This document shows, piece after piece, positions 48,151 through 63,678 of a stretch of DNA of 64,000 bases (positions are counted from its first letter, which is position 1; each line of letters begins with the position of its first letter). Source of the stretch: a phage; the sequence record PX880099.1, one strand, 5' to 3'. A model generated the notes under the pieces. That model saw nothing but the letters and a program-made list of their open reading frames with translations. It ran no database searches and was not told the origin of the DNA. A program made the position numbers and the translations under genes.

Positions 48151-48784
48151 TTTTAATATCTTCTAAAGACGCTTTATATTCTTCCCAGTTAATGCCAATA
48201 GCAGCTTCTTTCTCTTCTTTTGTCAGATTAGCAAAAGGCATAGGATTATTTCCAAAAACATCGTCTGGGTGGATATAAGCCATGATACGAAGTGGACAAG
48301 GTATTGCCTGAATACCCTGATTCAAACCAGCAGCTTTCAAACGGTGTACCCATTCAGCATCTTCAAAACCATAGCCGTGAGTGTAAGGGCGGAAATAACC
48401 CATCTTCTCAACAACGGCACGAGAATACATTGCAAATTGACACATTGCAAGTTCCCAGAGAATAACTTCTCCTTTACTCCCAACAACTTTATCTTTGAAA
48501 TACTCCGGCATACCAAAGAAATCCCATCCTCCAGAGACAGCTTGATCTACAAAATATGTTTCCCATCCCTCCATGATTGGGTAGCAATCGTCGTCAAAAA
48601 TAAACCAATAATCATAACCTTCTTCATAAAACTGGTGCATAAGTTCATTCCTGGCATAAGCTACACCTTTACGATCTGGATCGTTGAATACTCGAAAATC
48701 TGCGTGTGGATCTGTTACAAGGTAGTCTTTAAGTGGACGGACACCTACAGTGATAACACCCACTCCGATTTTAATATTTTCCAT
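48101..48784 (-). CDS. Putative GT-A-fold glycosyltransferase (DxD motif)
   Basis: 227 aa; ARNELMHQFYEEGYDYWFIFDDDCYP resembles the GT2-type nucleotide-sugar-binding region with DxD. Confidence 0.4.
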   Translation of the reverse strand: MENIKIGVGVITVGVRPLKDYLVTDPHADFRVFNDPDRKGVAYARNELMHQFYEEGYDYWFIFDDDCYPIMEGWETYFVDQAVSGGWDFFGMPEYFKDKVVGSKGEVILWELAMCQFAMYSRAVVEKMGYFRPYTHGYGFEDAEWVHRLKAAGLNQGIQAIPCPLRIMAYIHPDDVFGNNPMPFANLTKEEKEAAIGINWEEYKASLEDIKNGKIRISYEEALAHVK

Positions 48785-48792
48785 TTTCTCTC

Positions 48793-49356
48793 CTAAATAG
48801 TTTTACTGTGATCGTGACAGTGTAATAAATGATGTATAGACCGTTGAGGATTTGTTTGACCTAATCTGTAAATGTGAAACAGATACATTCCCCGCATCAA
48901 TCCTAACCTCTTTCCTTTTTCATGTAAAGTGCGAGAGAAAATTAAGTCGAATTGGATAGATTTTTCTTCGAAAGGAATTTCATTCCACAATGATTTTCTA
49001 AAAAGCAAAAAGAAACCTGCTAGAGGTGTTCCGAAAGGAACTTCTTCAACACTCACTTTATGATAGTCTCTTGCAACCTTAGCATATTCTATATGGTTTA
49101 GAATATCTGGATCATCGTTAATTTGGTTAGAGAAAAGCTGATAACCACTACCTAACCTGTTACAAGTTGCACCTATTACATCAAAAGGTGGGTTTGACAT
49201 AACAAGCTCTTCAAGCATAGATGGTTGATCAGGCAGGAGGAACATCGTATCGGTATCTCTTAAACACACCCAACTATCATCTGGAAGAACGGCAATAGCT
49301 TCATTGATAGCCTTGCCGATATTTCCTGTCAGATAGGGAGTAATATAATAAATCAT
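48793..49356 (-). CDS. Putative glycosyltransferase-like protein
   Basis: 187 aa; N-terminal YYITPY...VCLRDTDTMFL resembles GT-A start with a D-x-D. Weak. Confidence 0.3.
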   Translation of the reverse strand: MIYYITPYLTGNIGKAINEAIAVLPDDSWVCLRDTDTMFLLPDQPSMLEELVMSNPPFDVIGATCNRLGSGYQLFSNQINDDPDILNHIEYAKVARDYHKVSVEEVPFGTPLAGFFLLFRKSLWNEIPFEEKSIQFDLIFSRTLHEKGKRLGLMRGMYLFHIYRLGQTNPQRSIHHLLHCHDHSKTI

Positions 49357-50057: not shown

Positions 50058-50579
50058 TTAACTCCCCTTTGGTAGATAGAAACCATGCACTTTATCTCGA
50101 TAAACAAGACGCATATCACGCTCCCAGTGTGTCTTTATATTCCGCTTCTTGAAGTATAGAGCACCTTTAGTAACATCTAAAACAGACCGCAATTCAGGAA
50201 AATGTTTCTCTAAATAAAGTAAACGCTCCGCTATTGCTTTTGCTTCCTGCCACTTATCTTTCTCTGTTACGTTAAAAGTTTTCGCATATGAGAATTGCCC
50301 TTTCTGGAACAAGACTCCTCTGACTGTGTTAGGAAAGTAGGCATCATTTCTTCTATTGATTACCACATTCCCAACGGCATTCATTCCTTTTTTACCCAGA
50401 CCGCGACCTTCTGCGTAAATTGCACAAGCTAATAGAATTTTATCATTATATTGCTTTGTACATTTGTGAACTACTTTAGCGGTTTTTACGTTTGCAGCTT
50501 CGGCTTTCGCCACAACAGGTGTAAATGTAAAAGCAGTTAAGGATAGTAACGCAACTGTTACAAAGTTTTTTATCAGCAA
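50058..50579 (-). CDS. Secreted cell-wall hydrolase, SleB-like (candidate endolysin)
   Basis: 173 aa; N-terminal signal-peptide-like segment MLIKNFVTVALLSLTAFTFTPVVAKA; LACAIYAEGRG block typical of SleB-type hydrolases; TTG start with AAGGAGG RBS. Confidence 0.6.
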   Translation of the reverse strand: MLIKNFVTVALLSLTAFTFTPVVAKAEAANVKTAKVVHKCTKQYNDKILLACAIYAEGRGLGKKGMNAVGNVVINRRNDAYFPNTVRGVLFQKGQFSYAKTFNVTEKDKWQEAKAIAERLLYLEKHFPELRSVLDVTKGALYFKKRNIKTHWERDMRLVYRDKVHGFYLPKGS

Positions 50580-50678: not shown

Positions 50679-51281
50679 TTATGGACATTCATACCATTCT
50701 TTTTTACCACCGAAGGCCATCACCACATCGCAAATATCCAGACCAGCTTTACCTACACCATATGCTTTCAGTTTCCATTCCCCATCTTCACGAACCAAGG
50801 AAGCCACGTGGCAGATTGTGTTGCCAGCTACTTCAGGAGCCAGGAAGTCAAAATCCAGAATTTCCACATTGCGCTCGGAGTCGAAGATTTTAAGCATACC
50901 TTCAGAAGCATGACCAAAACGTTTCAGACCTGTATCATCATCAATGGTCAGAACAAAGGCAATCTCTTGTGCATCAGGAGAGATTTTAGCCAGAGTAATA
51001 TCAATCTGCTCCATGCTGCCAGTTCCATCACGAACATCGTCACCAGCGAAGGTAGAACGTTCAGGATCAAACTTGTTAGCATAGCAAACTAGATGACGTG
51101 CAGACAGCATTTCAGGATTGCCAGCGGCATTGTGACGACAAACCAGTGCACTTACATCCAGATCCAGTTTAGAATCAGATTTCCAAGAGAATTCCAGGCG
51201 CAGTTCTTTCAGAGCCGGAGCAACTTTCTTCAGGGAAATTTTTTCGCTAGAGCCTTTTTTCAGAGAAATTTTATCAGTCAT
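50679..51281 (-). CDS. TerD-domain protein
   Basis: 200 aa; aligns by eye with E. coli TerD (ISLKKG..ISLKK / VSLSKGGNVSLSK; LDLDVSALV / FDLDASAFL; GEWKLKAYGVGKAGL / GEWKFRAVGQGYAGGL). Confidence 0.8.
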   Translation of the reverse strand: MTDKISLKKGSSEKISLKKVAPALKELRLEFSWKSDSKLDLDVSALVCRHNAAGNPEMLSARHLVCYANKFDPERSTFAGDDVRDGTGSMEQIDITLAKISPDAQEIAFVLTIDDDTGLKRFGHASEGMLKIFDSERNVEILDFDFLAPEVAGNTICHVASLVREDGEWKLKAYGVGKAGLDICDVVMAFGGKKEWYECP

Positions 51282-51296
51282 CTTTTGTCTCCTCTA

Positions 51297-51566
51297 TTAT
51301 TTAAGTGTAATACCAGTTACAGTCAATTCTACTTCCAAAAGCTTAGATGTGTTTTGGATTGCTACTAATTGTGCATGATGGTTTAGTTCTACAGCAGAAT
51401 AATCATTTTCCCCATCATCTACTTTTAAATAAACAATAACTTCACTAAGGTCTAAACCATTTTCGTCAAATGCATTTTCATAGACGAAAGTATCTCCTAC
51501 ATCCAAATCTTTAATGGTAAGGCATCGTTTATTTACTTTTTGCTCATCAATTTCGAAGTTTAACAC
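51297..51566 (-). CDS. Hypothetical protein, paralogue of 52588-52866
   Basis: 89 aa; shares DLxxGDTF, Y(E/D)(N/A)(A/Y)(F/E)D(E/A)(N)GLD and C-terminal EV(E/D)L(T/E)VT(G/N)ITLK with the other copy. Confidence 0.5.
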   Translation of the reverse strand: MLNFEIDEQKVNKRCLTIKDLDVGDTFVYENAFDENGLDLSEVIVYLKVDDGENDYSAVELNHHAQLVAIQNTSKLLEVELTVTGITLK

Positions 51567-51795
51567 TTCTTCCTCCTAATGTTATCTCCGGTTTGTATAT
51601 ACGAAGAATTATAGCATTTTCATTTTCTTTGTCAACCCATTCTTCATAATCGGGCCATACATGAATCTCTACTCTACTTACAATATCTTCCATCCGCACA
51701 GTCCCAATGAAATATTCTTTGAGACTGCGCATAATGAAAGCTTCTCTCTCGCGCCAATAATTTTCTACGACTTGAGAGGCAAGCTCGTCGATCAT
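51547..51795 (-). CDS. Hypothetical protein
   Basis: 82-aa ORF; overlapping stop/start with neighbours. Confidence 0.45.
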   Translation of the reverse strand: MIDELASQVVENYWREREAFIMRSLKEYFIGTVRMEDIVSRVEIHVWPDYEEWVDKENENAIILRIYKPEITLGGRSVKLRN

Positions 51796-52586
51796 TTTTT
51801 AGCACCTACCTTAACAACCCACTCTCCGAACTCTTCAGATAAGAGTTTGTCATAAAGCTCTGAATCTGTCAAGTCTAAATCTTTAATGCCAATAAAACCA
51901 ACATTGTCATAAGCATTTGCCAGTTCTTTCAGGAAGCTGAACTTCTCATTACCAACGCCAACCATGAACCAATAGATAGGCTTATTCTTATTCTCTTCAA
52001 TAAGACGACGAACAGCACTAGGATCACCATTCTCACCATCTGTCTGGAAGAATACAACACCAGGAGTAACGTCAGCACCTGGTTCAGATACAGCTACAAC
52101 TTTTTCACGCTCTACCGATACTGTTTCAGTTTTACCCAGCAGACGATTAAAGAAGCCTTTCTTTGGAGCCTCCTCTTGTACCACTTGTTTAGTGGTAACA
52201 TATTTGGTAACAGTGCCAAAATACTCATCGTAGATATCTGCCATTACAGGGGCGTAATTTGTTCCACCTCCGATACGAACATTACGCATACATTTACCAA
52301 CATAGTCATCGTAAACGTCTGCTGTTGCTGGAGTAAGCTCTTGAGAACTCGTATTGAAGGCCCACATGTCAATTTGTTCATTATCGTCGAACAGCATACC
52401 AAAAGGAAGCAGTTTGCCTACAAAATCACTCACTACCCCACGAGTATATAGACCATGCATACTACCAGAAATATCTAGAGCACATGCTACACGAAGAACA
52501 ATCTTACCTTCATTCAGGTTCTTATTCTTTTTCAGAGAGAAAGCAAGGTTTTCTTGACGTTTTTTCAGGCTGATTTTCTCGGACAT
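51792..52586 (-). CDS. vWA-domain protein (TerY-like)
   Basis: 264 aa; MIDAS motif DISGSM; N-terminus (MSEKISLKK) echoes TerD start; sits within Ter-type neighbourhood. Confidence 0.55.
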   Translation of the reverse strand: MSEKISLKKRQENLAFSLKKNKNLNEGKIVLRVACALDISGSMHGLYTRGVVSDFVGKLLPFGMLFDDNEQIDMWAFNTSSQELTPATADVYDDYVGKCMRNVRIGGGTNYAPVMADIYDEYFGTVTKYVTTKQVVQEEAPKKGFFNRLLGKTETVSVEREKVVAVSEPGADVTPGVVFFQTDGENGDPSAVRRLIEENKNKPIYWFMVGVGNEKFSFLKELANAYDNVGFIGIKDLDLTDSELYDKLLSEEFGEWVVKVGAKK

Positions 52587-52587
52587 A

Positions 52588-52866
52588 TTATTTCTCCTTC
52601 TTAAGTGTAATATTGGTAACTTCTAAATCTACTTCCACCATATTTGTATCTGGTGGGATGCAATGAGTATAGCCTCGTTGTGCTAGTGATCCATTAATAC
52701 AGATCGCACTGTTTGTGGAATTTTTAATGAACACCAAGTTACGGTAGGTATCCAACCCTGCGTCTTCATAGGCATCATAATACATGAATGTGTCCCCTAT
52801 GCCAAGGTCTTCGAAAGCAATAGGTAAATCCTGACACTTTTCTTCTTGAATATTGAATCTAAACAC
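52588..52866 (-). CDS. Hypothetical protein, paralogue of 51297-51566
   Basis: ORF called from 52932; GTG at 52866 is preferred (GAGGAGG RBS 5 nt upstream; aligns with start of paralogue). Confidence 0.45.
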   Translation of the reverse strand: MFRFNIQEEKCQDLPIAFEDLGIGDTFMYYDAYEDAGLDTYRNLVFIKNSTNSAICINGSLAQRGYTHCIPPDTNMVEVDLEVTNITLKKEK

Positions 52867-53422
52867 GCATACCTCCTCTACCAATTTTGAAGCCCAAATC
52901 GTAAGCTTCCTTAGTGATCTTTTGTAACTCACTTATAGGAAGTGTTACAAGAGGATCATCTTCTTCAATTTCCATCTTGTCATCTTCTGTTTCAATGAGA
53001 GTATTATGCACTTTGTGATAAGGGTTGTCAACACGTTTAAACTTATTCTTTTCTGTGCTGAAAAAACAATCTGGATCTTCTTCACCATCACCCCAACCTT
53101 GGTTAGGATCTCCGTCAGATTGTTCTGTAGGGATTTCACCTGTAAAATACTCTTCCAGCACCATAGCGATACCGTCCCTTGGATTCGAGGAATGCATTAA
53201 ATCACAAACCTTACCCCAATCCATAGCCCATTCGAACCGTTCACGAACGCCATTTTCATTCTCCTTTCCAGAGAAAACACAACCATAACTATCATAGTTG
53301 CCATACATCTCTTCAATAACAACACCATCCTTCAAAAGAAAGAGATAGCAAGGTGATCCGTCGAAAGAAGTAGAAAGGGCAGCTTTGCCCGATTCCTTAC
53401 ACAAAAAGCTAAAACAACCCAT
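52859..53422 (-). CDS. Hypothetical acidic protein
   Basis: 187-aa ORF in operon context. Confidence 0.5.
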   Translation of the reverse strand: MGCFSFLCKESGKAALSTSFDGSPCYLFLLKDGVVIEEMYGNYDSYGCVFSGKENENGVRERFEWAMDWGKVCDLMHSSNPRDGIAMVLEEYFTGEIPTEQSDGDPNQGWGDGEEDPDCFFSTEKNKFKRVDNPYHKVHNTLIETEDDKMEIEEDDPLVTLPISELQKITKEAYDLGFKIGRGGMRV

Positions 53423-53619
53423 TACAAACCCTCCTTCAGATTATCAAGAGCTACAGTGGTTTCACAAAATTCTCCATATGCTTTATGATGTTCTAGAAAA
53501 GCTTCAGGTCCACCCCAATCATTATCGTGTGTATTCCAACCATCAATAAAAGCATCTTCAATGATTGTGATCAGTTCCTGTCGAGTCAACGTAATGGTAT
53601 CAGGTTTTGGATTATGCAT
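53422..53619 (-). CDS. Hypothetical protein
   Basis: 65-aa ORF; start overlaps upstream small ORF stop. Confidence 0.45.
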   Translation of the reverse strand: MHNPKPDTITLTRQELITIIEDAFIDGWNTHDNDWGGPEAFLEHHKAYGEFCETTVALDNLKEGL

Positions 53620-53785
53620 CTTCTTTCTCCTCTAAAATATGAAACCCATAGCTACAATAGTCCTGAAAGGTTTCGTGTGCAAGATCTTCTATATCCTCTT
53701 GAGACATATCATCTTCAATTTCGATATCCACAACCTCATTGCATCCACACCAAGCAGTTTCAATATTCACTCGTAAAGTTTTCAT
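53612..53785 (-). CDS. Small hypothetical protein (57 aa)
   Basis: Not in ORF track. GAGGAAG RBS before ATG; ATGA overlap with upstream stop; fills an otherwise empty 160-nt gap. Confidence 0.3.
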   Translation of the reverse strand: MKTLRVNIETAWCGCNEVVDIEIEDDMSQEDIEDLAHETFQDYCSYGFHILEEKEDA

Positions 53786-53988
53786 TCTTCTTCCTCATTA
53801 AATTCCACATCAGAAATAACTTTAAATCTACCAAAGTTACGACAACCTTCATAGATATATCCATCACGACAAGCTGCAAAAATATCTGGAGTTTGTAGCT
53901 GGGTCATTGGGGCAAAGCGTTTCTCTTCGTCATAACGAACACCTATTTCTCCAGCTTGTTCGTCAAGCATGTATACACGGATTCTCAT
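53782..53988 (-). CDS. Hypothetical protein
   Basis: 68-aa ORF; coupled to TelA-like gene upstream. Confidence 0.45.
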   Translation of the reverse strand: MRIRVYMLDEQAGEIGVRYDEEKRFAPMTQLQTPDIFAACRDGYIYEGCRNFGRFKVISDVEFNEEEE

Positions 53989-55097
53989 TTACCCAACCCC
54001 TTCTTAACAGCGTCAACCATCCCATCTTCGAGAGATTGAACTTCATTGATGTAATCAACACGGGCAGCACGGGCTTCCGTATTGATGCGGTTAGTTTCTT
54101 CCAACATTTTAACCAAGTTTTCCTGATCGTGACGCAGAGTTTCAATATCCAACACTTGACGGTTAGCCAGTGCTGCTGCTTCGATCTGATTCTGTGTGGC
54201 AAGATCGCTACCCAGTTTAATTGCCAGGTTAAATTCATCAAGAACGTTATTCTGTGTCTCTGCGGCTTTCATTTGACGTAAGCTTTCAATATACATTGAG
54301 AAGTTAGCAGAGTAAGCAGGAATAACATTATTTACTATGTTACGCGCAGATCGCATTAAGCTTGCAGAAACTTTTTGCATACCTTGCACACGTGGTCCCA
54401 TTTGGACACACAGTAGGCGCAATGCTTTTAAATCCGCAATACGAATCTCCAGAAGATCCAAGGTATCTCGGATCGCTTGTCGCTGTTCTACCGCATCTTC
54501 TGGAAGAGCAGCCAAAGCTTGTTCTTCTTTTTCATAGGTCGCTGTTAGAAGCTGCATATCTCGGTTCAAACTTGCAGCATATTGTCCAATAGCTTGATGT
54601 AGCTTTTCAAGGTATACCAAAGAATCTTCTTCTTTGCGAATATCCATTTGAAGGTTCTTTACCAACTCTTCAATACGGTTATTAACATTATCAAACTCCC
54701 CAAACAGATCTTCTTTCATACCCATAACTTTTTTAATGAGTTTAGTAATACCTTTGCTTTGTTTAATAGAGTTTGGATCAAGTTGTTTTGCCTGTTTAAT
54801 CAAAGCTGTGAGTCGTTCACTCATCTGATCGCCTTGATTACTACGTTGATGTTTTAATACCTCGGCATTCAAGGAACGCAAGGTTGTTCCTGCCTCTGCC
54901 CCGATCTCTTCGATCTCTTGTCGTGTCATAGAAGGCAAAACTGGGACTTCTTGCGGTGCGGCTGGTGCATAAACAGGACTGGCATCTAACACGCTTGGAG
55001 CAAATACAGATTTACTTGCATCTGTTGTTGCAGTGAATACACTCATTTCAGACTTCTTCTGACCACCAGTAGCTGCTTTTAAAAACGGACTTGTCAT
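53985..55097 (-). CDS. TelA-like (toxic anion resistance family) protein
   Basis: 370 aa, largely predicted coiled coil; size and neighbourhood (TerD, TerC, vWA) fit TelA/KlaA; family call not motif-verified. Confidence 0.55.
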   Translation of the reverse strand: MTSPFLKAATGGQKKSEMSVFTATTDASKSVFAPSVLDASPVYAPAAPQEVPVLPSMTRQEIEEIGAEAGTTLRSLNAEVLKHQRSNQGDQMSERLTALIKQAKQLDPNSIKQSKGITKLIKKVMGMKEDLFGEFDNVNNRIEELVKNLQMDIRKEEDSLVYLEKLHQAIGQYAASLNRDMQLLTATYEKEEQALAALPEDAVEQRQAIRDTLDLLEIRIADLKALRLLCVQMGPRVQGMQKVSASLMRSARNIVNNVIPAYSANFSMYIESLRQMKAAETQNNVLDEFNLAIKLGSDLATQNQIEAAALANRQVLDIETLRHDQENLVKMLEETNRINTEARAARVDYINEVQSLEDGMVDAVKKGLGK

Positions 55098-55684
55098 TCT
55101 TCATTCTCCTCTTCTGCATCTCTTATGTATGGTGAAACACCGTATTCTTTAGCTACTTTAACCCAATCGTCCCATTTATACAACCATAATTTTCCTTCTG
55201 TTCCTTCTTTATCTGATTTTAACCACATATTAGGTTGCTTACCTGGATACATGCGATTAGGTTTACGATTATAACCTCTAATACATCTTGTCGCAAACCT
55301 ATCTACCAGAACAAGAACATATTTATATTCGTGGTTCAACGGCTCTTTGGAAGTAGCTTTAGGGTTTGCCCCTAATTCTGCTGCCAGTTTTTGCCAATGA
55401 GCACCGTGCCGACTAAACTTACCCATACAACCATCAATAGCATGAGCAATTTCGTGCTTCATTGTATCCACGATCATATCTCTTGTAGAGTTCTTATGCA
55501 AGTGCCAATTTACAACAACAATTTTATCTCGGTAGTTGCACCAACCGAAAGAGTTATTCACTTTGTTTCTAACGCAAGCTTTATATCCTGCTTCACGTAA
55601 CATGTTGTAGTAAACAGGAAAATCTTCTTTTATTTCCTGCATCACTTCCCACCACAAGAGTTGCAAGTCTCTCTCGGTATACAT
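55094..55684 (-). CDS. SprT-like zinc metallopeptidase domain protein
   Basis: 196 aa; HExxH motif in TMKHEIAHAIDG with downstream Gly/His typical of SprT-like domains. Confidence 0.5.
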   Translation of the reverse strand: MYTERDLQLLWWEVMQEIKEDFPVYYNMLREAGYKACVRNKVNNSFGWCNYRDKIVVVNWHLHKNSTRDMIVDTMKHEIAHAIDGCMGKFSRHGAHWQKLAAELGANPKATSKEPLNHEYKYVLVLVDRFATRCIRGYNRKPNRMYPGKQPNMWLKSDKEGTEGKLWLYKWDDWVKVAKEYGVSPYIRDAEEENEE

Positions 55685-55687
55685 AAC

Positions 55688-56281
55688 TTACACCTTAAAA
55701 GTGAAATGCGTGGTCGTGGCTTCAAAATCAGGGCCAGATAAACGTGCACTGAAATCTGAAATATTTGTAATTAAAAAGCTTTTATGCATACCTAACACAG
55801 CCACGCTTTCAATATCTTCTACTAACATTTCAATCATGTTAGAAACATGGCTGAACGTAGTGTTTTGTTTTTTGATGGTGTAGAAAGAAAGATTCCCACC
55901 TGCTGTATAAGATACTTCTTCAAAATCTTTAATCGTATACTGTGTCCCATCAGTAAAGAAAATGGTAGCTTTATTAGTAGCACGTTTCTTGTTTTTTGGT
56001 CCTTTTTTACGTTTACTGCGAGTAGGAAAACCATTTGGGAATACCGTAGCTACAAATTCTTCAGGAGAAACCTCCTTACCGAAATCATAACCATAAGAAA
56101 CAGCATCTATAAACTCATCGTCCTCATTTTTAAAATAATGAAAATAGGGCCAATTTGACAGATTATCAAGCATCTTATGCTCATCCACAGCAGAGAACGT
56201 ATCCCTCAAAGCACGTGTGATTTGCAAAGCATTAGGCAACCTTTTAACACCTACGATGGAAGTACGAATAGAAATTGTCAT
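55688..56281 (-). CDS. Hypothetical protein
   Basis: 197-aa ORF. Confidence 0.5.
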   Translation of the reverse strand: MTISIRTSIVGVKRLPNALQITRALRDTFSAVDEHKMLDNLSNWPYFHYFKNEDDEFIDAVSYGYDFGKEVSPEEFVATVFPNGFPTRSKRKKGPKNKKRATNKATIFFTDGTQYTIKDFEEVSYTAGGNLSFYTIKKQNTTFSHVSNMIEMLVEDIESVAVLGMHKSFLITNISDFSARLSGPDFEATTTHFTFKV

Positions 56282-56295
56282 TATTTTTCTCCTTA

Positions 56296-56733
56296 TTAAC
56301 GTCGCTTGCTACGAGATGAACTCTTTTTACTTAAAGGGCTATTGTAAGATTTACGAGTTGTATAGCTGCTATTTGTTTTAAAAGTTTGTCTCGGCTTTTC
56401 ATAAGTTTTTATCTCTTGTTTAGGCTTACCATAAAAATTAGTTTTCGGTTTAGGTGTGTTATAATGTTTATTAATAATCGTTCTGTTATCGTTATAATCC
56501 CCGCCGCTACGATTACTGCCACCGCTCATCATATGTCCTAACAACATACCTGTAGCAAACTCACCAACACCGCTACTACTAGAACCGCCACCATTGTTGA
56601 TAATAGTTGTATCTCCGTCAGATCCTTGTTGAGCGTATTGTTGAGGAGGTTGTTGATATTGTGTAGGATTTGTTTCATCCTCGCAAGCTGTTAAAAAGAT
56701 ACAACCAATTAAAATCAGGGCTAGTTTTTTCAT
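56296..56733 (-). CDS. Putative lipoprotein (glycine-zipper, low complexity)
   Basis: ORF called from 56808; preferred start ATG at 56733 with GAGGA RBS gives MKKLALILIGCIFLTAC (lipobox LTAC); Q/G/S/N-rich mature region. Confidence 0.45.
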   Translation of the reverse strand: MKKLALILIGCIFLTACEDETNPTQYQQPPQQYAQQGSDGDTTIINNGGGSSSSGVGEFATGMLLGHMMSGGSNRSGGDYNDNRTIINKHYNTPKPKTNFYGKPKQEIKTYEKPRQTFKTNSSYTTRKSYNSPLSKKSSSRSKRR

Positions 56734-56920
56734 ATTTGCTTTCCTCGTTTTGACTATTAATACATCTGTGTTTGAAATCTCCAGAGAAGCAATAAAGCTG
56801 CTCTCCATCTCGGTATAAACTCACTTTACTGCCGTTGATTACGCTTGTCAATACAAAAATTACAACAAACAACCCTATTGCAAAACAAATATTTTCAAAC
56901 ACAACCAACAAGTATTTCAT
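56675..56920 (-). CDS. Small membrane protein overlapping lipoprotein gene (possible i-spanin-like partner)
   Basis: 81 aa; N-terminal TM segment LLVVFENICFAIGLFVVIFVL; 3' end overlaps lipoprotein start by ~59 nt in a different frame. Confidence 0.3.
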   Translation of the reverse strand: MKYLLVVFENICFAIGLFVVIFVLTSVINGSKVSLYRDGEQLYCFSGDFKHRCINSQNEESKYEKTSPDFNWLYLFNSLRG

Positions 56921-57267
56921 TTTAAAAATACCTCATCATCAGTTTCATTATCCCAGAAGAACAAATCCCAACCATTAGGATCATTCCACTTGGCGGCTGG
57001 AGAAGTCCAGATTTGTTCGATATCAATATTCAAAACTTCGCCGTTTCGTTTTGAAACAGCCTTGGTTAATTCCCAACGAGATACAGGTTCTACCTCTCCT
57101 GAACCACTTCCACAACAAACTACTACGTTAGGAGGAAGGTTAATTGGATCTTTGGTCACAATCATAACGCTTACCCCAGGGTAAACTTTTGAAAGATAAT
57201 CTGAAACGTAATCAACATCACCAGGTAAATCCCAAACAAGTTTTTGAATTTCATCAAAATTGCTCAT
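56917..57267 (-). CDS. Hypothetical protein
   Basis: 116-aa ORF with AGGAGAG RBS, first gene after TerC terminator. Confidence 0.5.
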   Translation of the reverse strand: MSNFDEIQKLVWDLPGDVDYVSDYLSKVYPGVSVMIVTKDPINLPPNVVVCCGSGSGEVEPVSRWELTKAVSKRNGEVLNIDIEQIWTSPAAKWNDPNGWDLFFWDNETDDEVFLK

Positions 57268-57280
57268 AAGTCTCTCCTAT

Positions 57281-57303
57281 AAAATAGCCTCCCGAAGGAG
57301 GCT
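57281..57303 (-). terminator. Terminator after TerC gene (minus strand)
   Basis: Minus-strand AGCCTCC / TTCG loop / GGAGGCT followed by ATTTTAT. Confidence 0.5.
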
Positions 57304-57309
57304 CATCTA

Positions 57310-58284
57310 TTAAACAGCAGCTTCTTCTTTTTCAGGGAAGATAAAGCTTGCAATAACGCCAAGAGCTAATGTGCCTAGAACAATCATCAGACTTACGTTA
57401 GGGGAAATATCATGCGGGAGGAATGACCACTTGGCATGAAGTGTTTCACCGAACGGGTGATACATAAGTTTAGCACCAACAAACACCAGAACCACAGCAA
57501 CAGCTTTCTCTAAGTGAACCAAATATTTCACAGCTACACTTAACACAAAGAAAAGTGCACGTAAACCAAGAACAGCCATCAGCATTGCAGAATAAACTAG
57601 CAGAGGTTCTTGTGTCACACCGATCACAGCCGGAACTGAATCAAAAGAGAAGACAATATCTGTAAGCTCAATAACAAACACACAAAGAAGAGCAGGAGTT
57701 GCATATTTAATACCATTCTTAATGGTAATGAACTTTTCACCATCCAGTGCATTGTGCACAGGCAGGATTTTACCTACTAAACGAACAGCCCAATGTTTAG
57801 AGTAATCGATATCCTCTTCTTCATCACCACCTTTGATGATAGCCACGGCAGACCAAGCTACAATCAAACCGAACAACACTTGGACCGACCAATGAAGGTT
57901 AAACAGAGCGGTGCCTGCTGCAACAAAAATACCTCGGAAGACAATGGCTCCTGCAATCCCCCAAAGTAAAATCTTATGTTGGAGATGTGTGCTCTTAATT
58001 CCAAAGCTTGCAAAAATTGCCATGAACACCATTAGGTTATCTACAGAAAGACTCTTTTCCAACACATAGCCACTTAGGAAAAGCGCGGCAAACTCTTTAC
58101 CATGTTCTACCCAAATGAATGCGTAATATCCTAAAGCTAAAGCAATCCAAAAAACAGACCAAAGCAAAGCAGATTTAATTCCAATTTCTTTATTCTCTTT
58201 ATGACCAAAGAAATCGATACCAATAGACAATGCTAAAATACCAACTAAAACAACTACATCAATGATTGGGAAACCAAGTTGCAT
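57310..58284 (-). CDS. TerC-family integral membrane protein
   Basis: 324 aa, multiple TM helices; conserved LSVDN motif (EKSLSVDNLMVF). Confidence 0.8.
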   Translation of the reverse strand: MQLGFPIIDVVVLVGILALSIGIDFFGHKENKEIGIKSALLWSVFWIALALGYYAFIWVEHGKEFAALFLSGYVLEKSLSVDNLMVFMAIFASFGIKSTHLQHKILLWGIAGAIVFRGIFVAAGTALFNLHWSVQVLFGLIVAWSAVAIIKGGDEEEDIDYSKHWAVRLVGKILPVHNALDGEKFITIKNGIKYATPALLCVFVIELTDIVFSFDSVPAVIGVTQEPLLVYSAMLMAVLGLRALFFVLSVAVKYLVHLEKAVAVVLVFVGAKLMYHPFGETLHAKWSFLPHDISPNVSLMIVLGTLALGVIASFIFPEKEEAAV

Positions 58285-58365
58285 TATTTTCTCCTTTCTC
58301 TTTGCGGGGAACCACTCCCCGCCTCATGTGATACATCTTACTCTTTTTTAAAACCTTGTCAACAC

Positions 58366-58587
58366 TTATTTTGAAGAACTGGAGGAAAAGATTCCACGCA
58401 GCACTGCCATAATGAACGCTACGCACACCACGGTCCAGAATGTAACAGGAACAGTGATATCTGTGTGACCCATCATTTCAACAACGTAGTTGTAAGCCAG
58501 CAGCAGAAGCCACGCTGGAATCATACTGATCAGGAAAGCCAGAACAAACACGATAACTACTGCCAGAACACCTGCAACAACACCCAT
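58366..58587 (-). CDS. Small membrane protein
   Basis: 73 aa with two long hydrophobic segments. Confidence 0.5.
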   Translation of the reverse strand: MGVVAGVLAVVIVFVLAFLISMIPAWLLLLAYNYVVEMMGHTDITVPVTFWTVVCVAFIMAVLRGIFSSSSSK

Positions 58588-58600
58588 ATTATTTCTCCTC

Positions 58601-59083
58601 TTAAAGTTTATAAATAGTCACATCGTGACCTGCTTTTACTAAAGTTTCTTCAATCATCACTTCAATGATAGCCCAATTACCTCCTGCCAACCCTGCTCCA
58701 ATCATAGGTAAACCAATCTTATGTTCGGCAGATGTGTTCACCCATTTGTGGAGATCCTTTGCCATAGCCTCAAGAGCATCATACAGGGCATCATAGTCCA
58801 ACTGACGACCTTTACCGTTATACCCGTAACGGTACTGTCCGTATAGGTTATAAACCAGTGGGTCAGACACCTCCTCCGGCACCCCTAAACTAAAAGAACC
58901 CAGCTTACTTTGATCACCTGCGGCTGTGTCCAAGTCGGCTGCATATGCATAAGGAAATGCTCGTTTAATTTGCGGAGCAATCCCTGCACCCATATTACAC
59001 ATACAGTTACAACAGTGGGCTATAACGTTCACTTCCCCGTTCTTCGCTGCATCGATCAGATTCCCAGTAACAACCTTCAACAT
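58601..59083 (-). CDS. Macro-domain protein (ADP-ribose binding/processing)
   Basis: 160 aa; N-terminal VVTGNLIDA...VNVIAHCCNCMCNMGAGIAPQI and C-terminal IGLPMIGAGLAGG match the macro-domain pattern (cf. YmdB). Confidence 0.6.
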   Translation of the reverse strand: MLKVVTGNLIDAAKNGEVNVIAHCCNCMCNMGAGIAPQIKRAFPYAYAADLDTAAGDQSKLGSFSLGVPEEVSDPLVYNLYGQYRYGYNGKGRQLDYDALYDALEAMAKDLHKWVNTSAEHKIGLPMIGAGLAGGNWAIIEVMIEETLVKAGHDVTIYKL

Positions 59084-59092
59084 TTTTCCTCC

Positions 59093-59920
59093 TTACAGAA
59101 TATGTTGTTTTGTGTAACGATCCAAGAACTCAAAGTTTTCAGTATACTTTGCAATTCGATTGTAGCCTTCAGCTAAACAGCCGAAGAAAAGTTGTTCCAC
59201 ATAGTAGTGTGGCAATTGGCTAAGAATGATTTTGAAGTCTTCATGATTTTGGCCCATAAGGTACTTAATAGGACGAACAAGACACTGTGCATCACGTTCT
59301 TCATTAATCATTTTAACAAACGCTTCTGGTGTATTAATATAGTTAAAATTCAGCTTAGCTTCGGTATCTGCTTGATTACCTTCATATTTTGCAAAATACA
59401 AGAAGTAAACATCATTTTTAACTTGATTTTCATCAAGAATCTCAATCAGTTTGTCTTCATGAGTTCCAGTGATATTTACATCATCAATGAACACAAGCTT
59501 CTTATCACCCCAGAATTCTTTGTTGCAGTAGAATGTATCCCCATCAATAAGTTTCTTACGACTAGCTTTATCTAAGAAACCATAATCGTTGATATAGCTA
59601 ACTTTACGATGAATAATATCCAGTTCTGCTGAACGACCTTGATCATATTGTGCTTGCAACATATTAAAGTAATTAATAAAATGATCTGTCATCATTGTTG
59701 CAGCATTATGCACATGGTTATAAGGAGAAGGAATGATAACAAATTGTTCCCCAATATGTTTCATTGCCACTTGAGCAAAAAACTGAAGTGCCAATTCTTT
59801 ACCCATACGACGCGCAGCTTGGTTACTGCCAAATTTCAATTTTGAATAATCTTTGATATCAAAAGTAGCAGTTTCCAGGTCATCAAATTTATTTGCAAAA
59901 ATTTGAGTTTGATTACGCAT
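59093..59920 (-). CDS. Phosphoribosyltransferase-domain protein (type I PRTase)
   Basis: 275 aa; PRPP-binding signature KLVFIDDVNITGTHE. Confidence 0.55.
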   Translation of the reverse strand: MRNQTQIFANKFDDLETATFDIKDYSKLKFGSNQAARRMGKELALQFFAQVAMKHIGEQFVIIPSPYNHVHNAATMMTDHFINYFNMLQAQYDQGRSAELDIIHRKVSYINDYGFLDKASRKKLIDGDTFYCNKEFWGDKKLVFIDDVNITGTHEDKLIEILDENQVKNDVYFLYFAKYEGNQADTEAKLNFNYINTPEAFVKMINEERDAQCLVRPIKYLMGQNHEDFKIILSQLPHYYVEQLFFGCLAEGYNRIAKYTENFEFLDRYTKQHIL

Positions 59921-60590
59921 TTACAATTTCTCCTCTTTTAAGTTTCTCTAGTAAGTCGTTAGGGTTCTTAATATGACAGAAGTTAATCCCTATGTCAACA
60001 CATTTTCCATCAAATTCTTCGCTGTCCCCAACATGTAAAATCTCTTCAGCCTTCAAAGGAATGCTTGAATATGTGGCGGTCCTAACAAAGAATCTAGGAT
60101 CTGGTTTACACAACAGATGTTCGTCTGAAAAATGCATAAATTCAAAACAATTCCAACTGTCAAACATACAAGCACGACGCAAAATATCCCCAGATATGAA
60201 ATTAGTATTGCTTTTAATACTAAGATCATATTTACCAGACAAGTATAGCAAACAAACTGGCAAATCTAAAGCAATATGTGGAGGAAATTTAAGAAACCAT
60301 TGTTCACACTCAAAACGCATTTGTGCAGATTCTACAGGGGTTAAACCTATCTTTCTTCCCAACATGTTCCATGCATATGCTACGCCTTCTGCACACCCAT
60401 TTAGTGCAGCATTATCCATAATTTCTTTGGCATCTTTATATGCTTCTTTTGCCGCACGTTCAGACATTCTACCATATGTAGCAATAGTGTGCGTACGTGC
60501 ATCTGCATAGTTTTGATTGGCAGAAATAAGAGTATTCCATACATCAAAAGAAATATGTTTTATTGTCATACTAGGCCCACCACGCATCAA
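59913..60590 (-). CDS. HAD-like hydrolase (non-canonical motif I)
   Basis: 225 aa; motif I-like ISFDVWNTL (second acidic residue replaced) and motif IV-like VGDSEEFDG. Tentative. Confidence 0.4.
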   Translation of the reverse strand: MMRGGPSMTIKHISFDVWNTLISANQNYADARTHTIATYGRMSERAAKEAYKDAKEIMDNAALNGCAEGVAYAWNMLGRKIGLTPVESAQMRFECEQWFLKFPPHIALDLPVCLLYLSGKYDLSIKSNTNFISGDILRRACMFDSWNCFEFMHFSDEHLLCKPDPRFFVRTATYSSIPLKAEEILHVGDSEEFDGKCVDIGINFCHIKNPNDLLEKLKRGEIVNA

Positions 60591-61176
60591 GATTTAAGTT
60601 ACTGTCTACCACAACTTGTTCTATGTGGTAGCCTTTTATCTGTATCCCACTGTTCAAGAGCATATCATATGCTTCATTGAAACGCAACTTATCTTCTGCG
60701 GAATATAAGCGAGCATTGTAAAATCGGTAATCAAGTTCTTCAGCATTAGAAGAAATACGGAAGAAGTTTGTTTCTACTTCAGGATCACTTGCTGAAGTTT
60801 TAATGTGAACTTCTCCGTAATTTTCTTTGCTTAGATCCATGAAAAGAACACAGGCAACATGTTTAAACATTCGTTCCAGTTTGTAACGAACAACATTGAA
60901 ACCTGCGTTCTCAAGTTTTTCTACACATTGCAACATTAACGTAGTGTCGAGATCGCTTTGATACTTTGTTAACATACGATCACGTTGAGACTTTGTATCC
61001 CGATGTAAATCAATTGTTGTGCATTTGGCACCAATGATCTTAGCTGCTTTCATCAACTCTTCAGAACTAACGTTAGATAAAGTAAGATGAAAATGGGCTT
61101 TCCACACTTTTTTAGCAGGGACACCAAAAGATTTATCCCCACTATTCGGCATGTTGACTACTACACTATGTTGCAT
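60571..61176 (-). CDS. Hypothetical protein (possible 2H-phosphoesterase-like; unverified)
   Basis: 201 aa; one H-x-T-x-like motif (AHFHLTL) and a degenerate second (EVHIKTS). Confidence 0.4.
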   Translation of the reverse strand: MQHSVVVNMPNSGDKSFGVPAKKVWKAHFHLTLSNVSSEELMKAAKIIGAKCTTIDLHRDTKSQRDRMLTKYQSDLDTTLMLQCVEKLENAGFNVVRYKLERMFKHVACVLFMDLSKENYGEVHIKTSASDPEVETNFFRISSNAEELDYRFYNARLYSAEDKLRFNEAYDMLLNSGIQIKGYHIEQVVVDSNLNLDAWWA

Positions 61177-61396: not shown

Positions 61397-61867
61397 CTAA
61401 TCTGATTGCCAACCACTCGCCGTTTTGGTCCATAATCTTTGATTATCTGACCCTCTGAAAGGTTTTGTGGTTGGATTGTTTATTTCATACTTTCCGTCTA
61501 CAATAATGTCAACAAGATTTTTAATATACAAAGGCACTTCCTCAAAAGTATATCCTGTATACACCATTATATCTTTGCTTGACCCATAAACGTCTCTAAC
61601 CTTTTCTATAAGGTTTTTAACATTGTAAATATTCTGCGGATCTAATGGTTCTCCTCCTAAAATTGTTAAACCTTTTACAAACGGTCTTGACAAATCTTTT
61701 AAAACTTGCTCTACATTTTCGTTAGTGAACGGTTTCCCATAAGAATAAGACCAGGCTTTCTGGTTAAAACAGCCACGACAACCGTGGCTACAACCACTAA
61801 CCCAGAGGGAGCACCTAACTCCCTCACCATTAATAAGATCTACAGGTTCATATCCTGCAAAATTCAA
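61397..61867 (-). CDS. nrdG: Anaerobic ribonucleotide reductase activating protein (radical SAM)
   Basis: 156 aa; CxxxCxxC cluster CSHGCRGC; overlaps stop of nrdD by 4 nt. Confidence 0.85.
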   Translation of the reverse strand: MNFAGYEPVDLINGEGVRCSLWVSGCSHGCRGCFNQKAWSYSYGKPFTNENVEQVLKDLSRPFVKGLTILGGEPLDPQNIYNVKNLIEKVRDVYGSSKDIMVYTGYTFEEVPLYIKNLVDIIVDGKYEINNPTTKPFRGSDNQRLWTKTASGWQSD

Positions 61868-63678
61868 AGATGTTTCTCCCTTTGCAAAACTTCCTGCATT
61901 TTACCTTTGTTATAAGGCCGTGAATTAGGGGCAGAAAGATACCCTGATACACGTCTAACTACAGAAATAGTTTCTTCTTCATGGTTGCCACAATTAGGAC
62001 ACTCAAACCCTTTAGCCGTTGCCTTAAATTCTCCATGAAAACCACACTTAAAGCATTGATCCACGGGCTGATTAATACCAAAATAGTGAATATGTTCATA
62101 AGCGTAGTCTACTAAAGTCTCCAAAGCTTCTAAGTTATTCTTTAAGTTTGGTGTTTCGACATAACTTATGTTACCACCATTGCTAATCTGTGCAAAACCT
62201 GCTTCATAATCCCATTTTTCAAAAGGATTTGTTACCAACCATACAGGTTGATGAAAAGAATTAGTAAGATAGTCTCTTTCTACCAGACCTGGATATTTTT
62301 CATTTAAAGCTGTTGCAAATTTATAGCACAAGGATTCTGCTGGAGTTCCATAAAGACTAAATGCCAACTTAGATCGTTCTTTAAACACAGCACACACATC
62401 TTTCATATGTTGCAGAATGTTTTTACCTAGTTCCTTTTTATCTTTTTCCTCTGGATAAAGGATTTCCAAAGCTTCGGCAAGACCTACATAACCAATACTA
62501 ATAGAAGCATAACCACCTTCAAACAAAGCACCAATTTCATCGTTGGCATTTAAACGCGCTAAAGCCCCTTCCATGAAAAGAATAGGGTTTTCAGATGCTT
62601 TGGTATGTCTGATACGGTTTACACGTAGCATGTGAGCATCGTAGGCTATCTCCATATGTTTATTAAGAAGATCGGTGAAAGATTCTCCTTTACTTCTCGC
62701 TTCCGCAGCAATCAGAGGCAAGTTGATAGAAACTACTCCAAGGTTGAATCGTCCATCATATTTTTCTCCTTGTTCGGTGGCATAGTACGACAAAAAGGAA
62801 CGACAACCCATACTCGTAACGGTACCATCTGCTGATCCCGTAACTTCTTTGTTCAAAGGAACAGAAATAAAATCTGGATAAATACGATCAGCACAACATG
62901 CCAAAGCTTGTTGCTTAAGGTCGTAGTTAGGATCACTAGGTTTCATGTTAACACCTTCTTGTAAAAAGAAAATAACTTTAGGGAATACAGGCGTTACATG
63001 ATCTTTACCTAGACCGTTACTATGCACTTTAAGATAGTTAGCTGTGATCATTCTGCCAAAAACAGAGGTATCCAGACCCATACTGATTGTAATAAAAGGA
63101 GATTGTCCATTAACACTCATTAAAGTGTTAACCTGATACAAAAGAGTTTGCATAGCGTCATATACATCTTGTTCGGTCATTTCTAGGGCTTCTTTCCTTG
63201 CATAACAACCGTAGCGACGTTTGGTTATCTCCATGTTTTTAAGGAAACTGGCTTCAACATAAGGACTAAGACCTTTATCAATGTGCGCACACGTCTGACC
63301 TCCATACTGACTGGAGGCAACAGCTTGGATGATTTGAGTTAGCACTGTAGTAGCTACTCCAATAGATTTTGGTTTTTCTATCTGTGCAGCACCGATCTTA
63401 AAACCATTCTCTAACATATCTTGATAATTAACAAGACAACAGTTTGTAAGAGGAGAGAGCAGATAATCCAAGTCGTGAATATGTCCAAAACCTTCTGTAT
63501 GCCATTCTGACAAGTTTTTTGGCAGTATCTGTGTCATTGCCATATGTTTGCTTAAAATCCCCGCCAAGAGATCCCTGTGCGTGTTAACAAGGTGGGAAGG
63601 TTTGTTTGCATTCTCTCTAGTGTATGTTTCTGAAGTGCGATCTAAAAAAGAAAAAACATCTTGGTACAAATCTTTCAT
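61864..63678 (-). CDS. nrdD: Anaerobic ribonucleoside-triphosphate reductase (class III)
   Basis: 604 aa; C-terminal zinc ribbon CFKCGFHG...CPNCGN and glycyl-radical motif RRVSGYLS. Confidence 0.9.
   Translation of the reverse strand: MKDLYQDVFSFLDRTSETYTRENANKPSHLVNTHRDLLAGILSKHMAMTQILPKNLSEWHTEGFGHIHDLDYLLSPLTNCCLVNYQDMLENGFKIGAAQIEKPKSIGVATTVLTQIIQAVASSQYGGQTCAHIDKGLSPYVEASFLKNMEITKRRYGCYARKEALEMTEQDVYDAMQTLLYQVNTLMSVNGQSPFITISMGLDTSVFGRMITANYLKVHSNGLGKDHVTPVFPKVIFFLQEGVNMKPSDPNYDLKQQALACCADRIYPDFISVPLNKEVTGSADGTVTSMGCRSFLSYYATEQGEKYDGRFNLGVVSINLPLIAAEARSKGESFTDLLNKHMEIAYDAHMLRVNRIRHTKASENPILFMEGALARLNANDEIGALFEGGYASISIGYVGLAEALEILYPEEKDKKELGKNILQHMKDVCAVFKERSKLAFSLYGTPAESLCYKFATALNEKYPGLVERDYLTNSFHQPVWLVTNPFEKWDYEAGFAQISNGGNISYVETPNLKNNLEALETLVDYAYEHIHYFGINQPVDQCFKCGFHGEFKATAKGFECPNCGNHEEETISVVRRVSGYLSAPNSRPYNKGKMQEVLQREKHL

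Follow-up and report, generated by a model that had tools for sequence, protein, structure and literature searches.

We analysed a 64,000-nucleotide stretch of phage DNA (sequence record PX880099.1; hereafter the window) and investigated a block of genes on its minus strand, at positions 50,679–61,176. Judged from its sequence, this block is a phage version of the Ter systems that Anantharaman et al. (2012) defined. It carries TerD, TerC, TelA and a TerF-type von Willebrand factor A (vWA) protein, with a linked phosphoribosyltransferase (PRTase) and HAD hydrolase. The TelA and vWA genes lie within 7.6 kb of TerC and TerD on the same strand, and this linkage is kept in phage phi92, Klebsiella phage FBKp34 and the actinobacterium Pedococcus sp. 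KACC 23699. TerD, vWA, TelA, TerC, HAD and the PRTase (family PRTase_3) form a genuine, repeatedly co-inherited core: they turn up together in divergent genomes, far beyond what chance would give. We put at about even the chances that the block holds a phage-encoded Ter stress system, in which this six-gene core, made up of a membrane sub-module and a two-enzyme sub-module, would act at the inner membrane in exclusion or protection.

Gene content and organization of the block

The window derives from a Phapecoctavirus (Stephanstirmvirinae), a phAPEC8-type Escherichia coli myovirus of roughly 150 kb that is not a jumbo phage. The 10.5-kb block is 94–98% identical over its full length to dozens of phAPEC8-like myoviruses, with Escherichia phage vB_EcoM_3A1_SA_NWU as the top match (98.0%). 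GenBank labels for the genes vary among these relatives, including 'TelA-like', 'TerD family protein', 'integral membrane protein TerC' and 'putative orotate phosphoribosyltransferase', as well as 'hydrolase', 'phosphatase' and 'macro domain-containing protein'.

A first-pass annotation, made from the letters alone, had named eight open reading frames (ORFs) here: those of the six-gene core, a macro-domain protein and an SprT-like peptidase. All eight were found on the minus strand at exactly the positions given (Table 1), and profile searches supported every assignment, the HAD match being weak in Pfam and clear elsewhere. The motifs that had been read were likewise all present: DISGS, the metal ion-dependent adhesion site (MIDAS) of the vWA protein; LSVDN and DSVPA in TerC; and HEIAH in the SprT-like protein, which together with its PF10263 match identifies a zinc metallopeptidase of that type. 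The ORF layout confirmed a co-directional array interleaved with small ORFs, tightly packed head to tail with many overlaps of 4–20 nt, and the array does end next to nrdG/nrdD. GC skew is negative from ~38 kb on, which fits minus-strand coding.

As read from the DNA, the block is more than one operon, because TerC has its own sigma70-like promoter and terminator. TerC looks like a monocistronic unit under a host-type promoter, and the phAPEC8 record, too, places a host-dependent promoter in the corresponding intergenic space. Two runs of genes are tightly packed: one runs from the 201-amino-acid (aa) ORF through HAD, PRTase_3 and macro to the ORF with two transmembrane (TM) segments, and the other from a 116-aa ORF (56917–57267) down to TerD, including a 4-nt overlap of the SprT-like stop with the TelA start.

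Table 1 Features of the block in order of position.
Feature	Position	Strand	Evidence
TerD-domain protein, core	50679..51281	-	Pfam PF02342, E 3.2e-28, 98.9 bits (cut-off 25.3)
Small conserved ORF, 89 aa	51297..51566	-	homologue in phi92
vWA-TerF-like protein, core	51792..52586	-	DISGS MIDAS; Pfam PF10138, E 2.8e-37, 129.2 bits
Small conserved ORF, 114 aa	52588..52932	-	61% identity in phi92
Conserved ORF, 187 aa	52859..53422	-	76% identity in phi92
TelA-like protein, core	53985..55097	-	Pfam TelA PF05816, E 1.7e-33, 116.6 bits
SprT-like HExxH metallopeptidase, accessory, Phapecoctavirus only	55094..55684	-	PF10263, E 4.2e-9, 36.7 bits (cut-off 25.6)
ORF, 197 aa	55688..56281	-	C-terminal part 40% identical to part of phi92 gp179
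Predicted lipoprotein	56296..56808	-	lipobox LTAC after MKKLALILIGCIF; hydrophobic segment
Small single-TM protein, 81 aa	56675..56920	-	TM-like segment at residues 5–23; 49% identity in phi92
Intrinsic-terminator-like hairpin	57286..57303	-	AGCCTCCttcgGGAGGCT then T-rich tail, directly after TerC stop
TerC/Alx-subfamily integral membrane protein, core	57310..58284	-	Pfam PF03741, E 3.6e-40, 138 bits
Sigma70-like promoter for TerC	58335..58362	-	TTGACA-16-TAAGAT
Small two-TM protein, 73 aa	58366..58587	-	two TM-like segments; 63% identity in phi92
Macro-domain protein, lineage-specific neighbour	58601..59083	-	PF01661, E 9.6e-5, 22.8 bits (cut-off 22)
PRTase_3 (ComF-like type I phosphoribosyltransferase), core	59093..59920	-	PF15610, E 1.6e-41, 142.9 bits
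HAD-IA hydrolase, core	59913..60590	-	Pfam 'Hydrolase' PF00702, E 1.4e-3, 19.5 bits (below cut-off 26.4)
201-aa ORF, accessory	60571..61176	-	no Pfam family

Co-conservation of the six core genes

The block was compared with phi92, which represents the sister genus, with FBKp34, which is a divergent phage within the subfamily, and with unrelated phages, contigs from metagenomes and genomes of cellular organisms. The gene order is kept in phi92, with amino acid identities of 81% for TerD, 67% for vWA, 79% for TelA, 71% for TerC, 65% for the PRTase, 47% for HAD and 49% for the macro protein. This phage also keeps several small ORFs, the TM proteins and the lipoprotein (gp180, annotated with a signal peptide); its gp179 lies directly upstream of TelA. 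In phi92 we found no match for four small ORFs or for the 201-aa ORF, and the SprT-like protein had no tblastn match within the phi92 or FBKp34 loci compared. In FBKp34, identities were 88% for TerC, 39% for vWA, 27% for TerD and about 50% for HAD and PRTase. The order there is rearranged, with the HAD–PRTase pair across the endolysin gene, and the full inventory still lies within about 10 kb; within the locus compared, tblastn did not detect TelA and the macro protein had no match.

The same genes also recur together outside the subfamily. A metagenomic phage contig (L006) carries TerC, TerD, vWA-TerF and HAD–PRTase_3 within ~7 kb, with a PRTase of 48% identity; TelA was not detected on it. 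The Pedococcus chromosome (L028) encodes TelA-TerD-TerD-TerC/DUF475-vWA-TerD-TerD-HAD-PRTase_3-PRTase_3, and loci from Bacteroidales metagenome-assembled genomes (MAGs) place HAD–PRTase_3 near two TerD genes or TerC. Across a phage collection of 50,697 records, we counted 157 records with PRTase_3, 146 with TerD, 175 with TerC, 206 with vWA-TerF and 223 with TelA. PRTase_3 and TerD counts ran in parallel by organism name: 105 and 106 for Escherichia, 7 and 7 for Brevundimonas, 4 and 4 for Caulobacter, and 10 and 8 for Klebsiella.

These results uphold the proposed Ter-type neighbourhood, with a PRTase and a HAD enzyme linked to TerD, TerC, TelA and vWA, an inventory that the bacterial Pedococcus chromosome shares. 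The proposal had been staked on co-conservation across related phages, and the core proved to be co-conserved in related and unrelated phages alike. The first-pass annotation had, however, spoken of the whole set as one; this holds for the six core genes, whereas the macro, SprT-like and 201-aa genes are lineage-specific passengers, because macro is common elsewhere and the other two are missing from phi92.

The comparisons also bear on a different explanation, in which accessory genes ('morons') that are independent of one another have gathered as a loose aggregate in a variable early/accessory region between nrdDG and the endolysin and each act alone. Such an aggregate would account for the several promoter- and terminator-like sites and the apparently monocistronic TerC, for the many unrelated small ORFs interleaved, for parts found singly in other phages, and for the three passengers not being co-conserved with the rest. 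It sits poorly with the recurrence of the six families together in L006 (no TelA detected), FBKp34 and Pedococcus, where the orders differ and several parts have 27–50% identity, and with the co-occurrence of PRTase_3 and TerD genome-wide even when they are apart. We consider the aggregate unlikely, though more probable than the other rival explanations.

The HAD–PRTase_3 pair

HAD and PRTase_3 are a near-invariant gene pair. In the window, the HAD gene lies directly upstream of PRTase_3 with an 8-nt overlap, and the same order was found in all phage loci examined; of the 21 genome loci with PRTase_3, 20 have it as well. The pair lies in or near Ter genes in L006, the Pedococcus locus and four other loci (L022, L024, L026 and L030).

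The phosphoribosyl pyrophosphate (PRPP) loop of PRTase_3 (VFIDDVNITGTHE, FIDDVxITGTHE) fits the type I pattern of a hydrophobic run, two acidic residues and T-G-x-T. Its residues D146, D147, T151, G152 and T153 were invariant in 11 divergent homologues, down to 36% identity. For the HAD hydrolase, support beyond Pfam comes from NCBIfam REG-2-like/CTE7 HAD-IA models and from PHROG 14393 'hydrolase' (8.7e-121); motif I, FDVWNTL, is shared with the solved structure PDB 2om6, and orthologues elsewhere exceed the Pfam PF00702 cut-off. Since the PHROG match sets in only at residue 8, the true HAD start is probably the ATG at 60569 instead of the TTG at 60590.

The pair was also observed in other settings. 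In Xanthomonas phage XaC1 (L002, 12518–17527) and in another phage (L007, 4443–10825) it adjoins an Rnl1-type RNA ligase; a large DUF2828/DUF7788 protein is encoded near it in L007, and a 528-aa protein in a similar position in XaC1. Rhizobial chromosomes and plasmids (L009–L021) carry the pair at 38–41% identity, with no Ter neighbours detected, and in Ensifer aridi (L011, 9061–11587) a ClpP-like protease gene follows it.

Proposed role in infection

In the Ter stress system that we propose, the membrane module would consist of TerC (an Alx cation-transporter-like protein), the coiled-coil TelA, the vWA-TerF-like MIDAS protein and TerD, with the small TM proteins and the lipoprotein among them, and the two-enzyme module of the HAD hydrolase followed by PRTase_3. 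PRTase_3, whose PRPP loop is intact, would join a base to PRPP and yield a nucleoside 5'-monophosphate, from which the HAD enzyme would strip the phosphate to leave a nucleoside-like molecule, as the chemistry of the family and the published Ter hypothesis suggest. TerD, possibly with the vWA protein, may bind that ligand and/or divalent cations, and TerD/vWA and TelA could then alter the state of the inner membrane and the ion flux through TerC. During lytic infection the module would be expressed early, TerC at least from its predicted host-type promoter, and would harden the infected inner membrane against secondary phage genome entry, pore-forming colicins or membrane-depolarising abortive-infection effectors.

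The most likely function appears to be that the module excludes competing phages or protects the membrane of the infected cell, because the sole phenotypes on record for ter genes, those given for plasmid loci, comprise resistance to tellurite and to colicins as well as inhibition of phages (Whelan 1995, cited in bioRxiv 10.1101/2021.03.02.433402). Intact catalytic motifs, a core kept at high divergence, and membrane and lipoprotein neighbours conserved in phi92 support the reading as a whole.

Several observations weigh against it. Each part also turns up unaccompanied by the rest: TerC on its own in phages of roughly 73–92 kb from Cronobacter, Proteus, Pectobacterium and Vibrio, TelA on its own in PBECO4-like jumbo phages, and HAD–PRTase_3 with no Ter genes close by in XaC1, L007, Rhizobium phages and rhizobial genomes. 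The two modules are ~38 kb apart in Brevundimonas phages. HAD phosphatases use a second Asp, two residues after the nucleophile, as general acid/base; the HAD protein here has the nucleophile Asp and the KPD and GDS motifs, but Trp in place of that second Asp, and phosphatase chemistry is therefore uncertain. TerD aligns with the solved TerD structures 2kxt (1.5e-15) and 3ibz. The acidic Ca2+-binding motif, which the paper on the Klebsiella TerD structure reportedly gives as GDN(R/L)TG(E/A)GDGDDE, is retained only in part: in the 2kxt alignment the Ca-binding stretch GDNRTGEGDGDDE pairs with GDDVRDGTGSMEQ, with the motif's beginning and one Glu preserved and the D-G-D-D run missing. Finally, the exclusion or membrane-protection role is one that we infer, and the literature searched contained no experiment on any phage Ter gene, those of phAPEC8, phi92 and Stephanstirmvirinae included.

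Ter genes (TerC, TerD, TelA and TerF-vWA) are widespread in bacteria, plasmids and pathogens, with phenotypes linked to them since the 1990s. A compact, conserved Ter set in easily handled lytic E. coli phages, whose relatives infect K-12, would offer a convenient genetic system in which the HAD/PRTase nucleoside-like signal and the function of the membrane proteins could be tested.

Accessory genes and nucleotide signalling

We then considered the macro-domain protein, which probably is an accessory gene product with an independent, conflict-related function in ADP-ribose removal. Among solved macrodomains its best match was SCO6735 (5e3b, 3.4e-13), followed by BT1257, 5m31 (Appr-1-p processing domain protein), TARG1 and Poa1p, and the 5e3b alignment pairs LPMIGAGLAGGNW with LPRIGCGLAGGTW at the shared glycine-rich loop. 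It also matched PADLOC DarG (4.8e-12) and PHROG 335 (3.7e-57). Homologues occur in 2,961 phage records, compared with 146–223 for the Ter parts, and include the T4-type tk.4 (RB69 tk.4). The protein belongs to the same family as the stand-alone phage macro domains (T4-type Tk.4 'phosphatase', PHROG 335); those mostly lack a Ter or PRTase neighbour, whereas here and in phi92 the gene directly follows PRTase_3. Among the loci examined, this adjacency was confined to Phapecoctavirus and phi92, and FBKp34, L006, the phages of Rhizobium and Brevundimonas and the bacterial loci all lacked macro next to HAD–PRTase_3. The suggestion that the embedded macro domain points to NAD or ADP-ribose signalling gained little from these comparisons and remains speculative.

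An assignment as the DarG antitoxin of DarTG was rejected: NF048014 scored 42.7 bits against a cut-off of 250, with the macro part alone matching, and neither Pfam nor PADLOC gave a DarT match among the neighbouring ORFs scanned. The PADLOC scan for known defence systems returned only macro as DarG and the 201-aa ORF with two 'AbiEi' models.

Further macro arrangements were noted. Pseudomonas phage phiPsa374 (L029, 5134–15135) has a small Ter module of TerC, vWA-TerF, a small ORF and TelA, in which TerD was not detected; its macro gene lies ~3 kb from that module, beside genes annotated as NAMPT (nicotinamide phosphoribosyltransferase) and Prs (ribose-phosphate pyrophosphokinase). The macro and HAD proteins of the window are 85% and 77% identical to their phAPEC8 (L005) counterparts amid flanking genes at 98–100%, and Shigella phage SF1-1 combines the window-type HAD allele with the other macro allele. 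Low identity at these two genes between near-identical flanks, together with the SF1-1 allele mix, points to allelic exchange at both.

The 201-aa ORF had no Pfam family and no confident structural neighbour. A profile search gathered 247 clusters (50% identity) for its family. The domain comes after a NUDIX domain in several proteins of ~340 aa (P0232, P0237 and P0264) and after an HD_4 (RelA/SpoT-type) domain in P0203; these fusions hint at a nucleotide-linked role. The two PADLOC 'AbiEi' matches were at ~5e-13, and Pfam gave no AbiEi family. A 2H phosphoesterase and a triphosphate-tunnel enzyme, candidates prompted by the HxT-like motifs FHLTL and VHIKT and by alternating charged strand residues, were rejected; the ORF has the look of a tandem ferredoxin/ACT-like fold. 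The ORF was without a match in the FBKp34 locus compared. Macro, the SprT-like gene and the 201-aa ORF are probably neighbouring accessory genes with separate conflict-related roles.

One could instead take the 201-aa ORF, HAD, PRTase_3 and macro as a separate nucleotide or ADP-ribose counter-defence module that would restore or detoxify some ribosylated nucleotide, for instance a NAD- or ADP-ribose-derived signal or an alarmone, with the Ter genes as unrelated neighbours. The four genes are separated by gaps of 9–15 nt or overlap, with no terminator-like site between them, and the HAD–PRTase–macro adjacency is kept in phi92. The resemblance of macro to the ADP-ribose hydrolases/phosphatases SCO6735, DarG, TARG1 and Poa1p, the NUDIX and HD_4 hydrolases to which the 201-aa domain is fused elsewhere, the phiPsa374 macro gene beside NAMPT and Prs, and the RNA ligase beside HAD–PRTase in XaC1 and L007 point the same way. 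Known phage NAD+ reconstitution pathways are pairs of NAMPT and NMNAT or of Prs-like and NAMPT-like enzymes. The PRTase here, by contrast, is PF15610 and not NAMPT/NAPRT or Prs-like; among the block ORFs scanned, it was the sole PRTase-type match, and no NAMPT- or Prs-type enzyme was found. The separation of macro from the pair in the other phages and bacterial loci named above, the absence of the 201-aa ORF from phi92 and the position of bacterial HAD–PRTase_3 inside Ter loci also argue against such a module, and we judge it improbable.

A version that retains the Ter stress system, and to which we likewise assign a low probability, would have HAD–PRTase_3 and macro of the Stephanstirmvirinae (in Phapecoctavirus with the 201-aa domain) make and turn over a new ribosylated nucleoside or nucleotide messenger in the course of lytic infection. 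This messenger would gate a TerC/TelA/vWA/TerD complex of the inner membrane that keeps competing phages from entering or neutralises membrane-depolarising abortive-infection effectors. If true, this would be a virus-encoded small-molecule signalling circuit and would give Ter proteins their first defined ligand and function.

TerC and metal homeostasis

TerC scored 319 bits against the NCBIfam model TIGR03718 ('TerC/Alx family metal homeostasis membrane protein'; cut-off 246.4), which places it in the Alx subfamily, and has nine TM-like segments. Its leader (58285–58362, minus strand) is ~50 nt long and contains one short hairpin, CGGGGAgtggTTCCCCG, just upstream of the ribosome-binding site. 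An Rfam scan of the whole window, this hairpin included, gave no family at the gathering score, and no Mn riboswitch of the 'R_switched_Alx' type was found ahead of the gene. The idea that TerC was acquired recently from the E. coli host was rejected, with no DNA similarity found in 5,426 complete E. coli genomes.

A metal-homeostatic module, in which an Alx-type TerC exports or redistributes Mn2+/Ca2+ while TerD and vWA buffer cations for phage or envelope enzymes and not for phage conflict, would agree with that TerC score, the Ca-binding fold of TerD (2kxt), the MIDAS metal site of the vWA protein, the position beside nrdDG and the endolysin, and the reported links of TerC proteins to Zn and Mn handling in recent papers, but lacks an Mn riboswitch in the TerC leader, has a TerD whose acidic Ca motif is partly lost and leaves the conserved HAD–PRTase partner and TelA unexplained; we hold it the least probable of the explanations considered.

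Comparison with described Ter systems

The large loci that Anantharaman, Iyer and Aravind are said to have described in 2012 also carry TerB, multiple TerD paralogues, ATP-grasp and aldolase/lyase-type enzymes. None of these (TerB, ATP-grasp, aldolase/lyase families or an extra TerD) had a match among the 20 block ORFs scanned; the phage version is abbreviated.

Phage Ter systems have been reported in Acinetobacter phage vB_AbaM_ME3 and in Caulobacter jumbo phages, the latter carrying TerD, TerC, TerF plus TelA and the former also with PRTase and HAD 'signal biosynthesis' enzymes; superinfection exclusion or rivalry was proposed for them, and 'certain other related smaller tailed phages' were mentioned (Iyer et al. 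2021, Viruses 13:63, PMC7824862). The block shares TerD, TerC, the TerF-type vWA protein and TelA with these systems, and the PRTase and HAD enzymes with ME3. It differs in having one PRTase (PF15610) and one HAD in a non-jumbo phage, a contrast with ME3 drawn from the published description, and in the interleaved macro domain, SprT-like peptidase and NUDIX/HD-associated domain.

The FBKp34 cluster of terC, terF-vWA, terD and telA has been described as well (Estrada Bonilla et al. 2021, bioRxiv 10.1101/2021.03.02.433402). It belongs to the same subfamily and likewise lies by nrdDG and a SleB-type endolysin, with HAD and a ComF-like PRTase gene nearby. Unlike the block, however, it has two TerD genes in another order and no macro, SprT-like or 201-aa match in the locus compared, and its parts other than TerC are at 27–52% identity. 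The Pedococcus locus, an example of the bacterial Ter loci with a linked HAD and PRTase_3 module, has the same family inventory as the window, all on one strand, but it is cellular, carries four paralogous TerD genes, a TerC of the DUF475 type and PRTase_3 in two copies, and shows 20–31% identity. The IncHI2 plasmid R478 locus, terZABCDEF, to which the recorded ter phenotypes belong, also has TerC, TerD-family proteins and a TerF vWA, whereas the window has one TerD, distant from Klebsiella TerD, and TelA instead, with no TerB match among the ORFs scanned.

Ter sets in virulent phages were already on record in both reports (PMC7824862; bioRxiv 10.1101/2021.03.02.433402). Since these describe phage Ter clusters, the second in the same subfamily, our finding correctly identifies a known kind of system in a phage lineage that had been sequenced and annotated before. 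It adds no new kind, phage Ter clusters with PRTase and HAD being in the literature; what is added here is the split between core and passengers, the near-invariant HAD–PRTase_3 pair, the apparent host-promoter TerC unit, and the NUDIX and HD fusions of the 201-aa domain.

Neighbouring genes and other observations

The 89-aa and 114-aa ORFs that flank the vWA gene are paralogues at 33–34% identity; no Pfam family was found for either of them, nor for the 187- and 197-aa ORFs. A tRNA scan of the window found none. Records labelled 'Campylobacter phage' (MG0656xx) and Acinetobacter phage vB_AbaM_ABPW7, and contig L008 of a 'Proteobacteria bacterium' MAG, encode proteins that match those of E. 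coli Stephanstirmvirinae exactly or almost exactly; these Campylobacter and Acinetobacter host labels and the binning of L008 look doubtful.

Directly downstream of the block (47164–49356 and 50058–50579, minus strand) lie a SleB-type cell-wall hydrolase (Pfam Hydrolase_2, 1.4e-17), called endolysin in relatives' records, and three putative glycosyltransferase genes whose labels come from relatives' annotation; phi92 has the same arrangement there. At the other end, nrdD is a single intact ORF of 604 aa (61864–63678), whereas the phi92 record (L001, 7218–9296) gives nrdD in two pieces, joined under the label 'spliced variant'.

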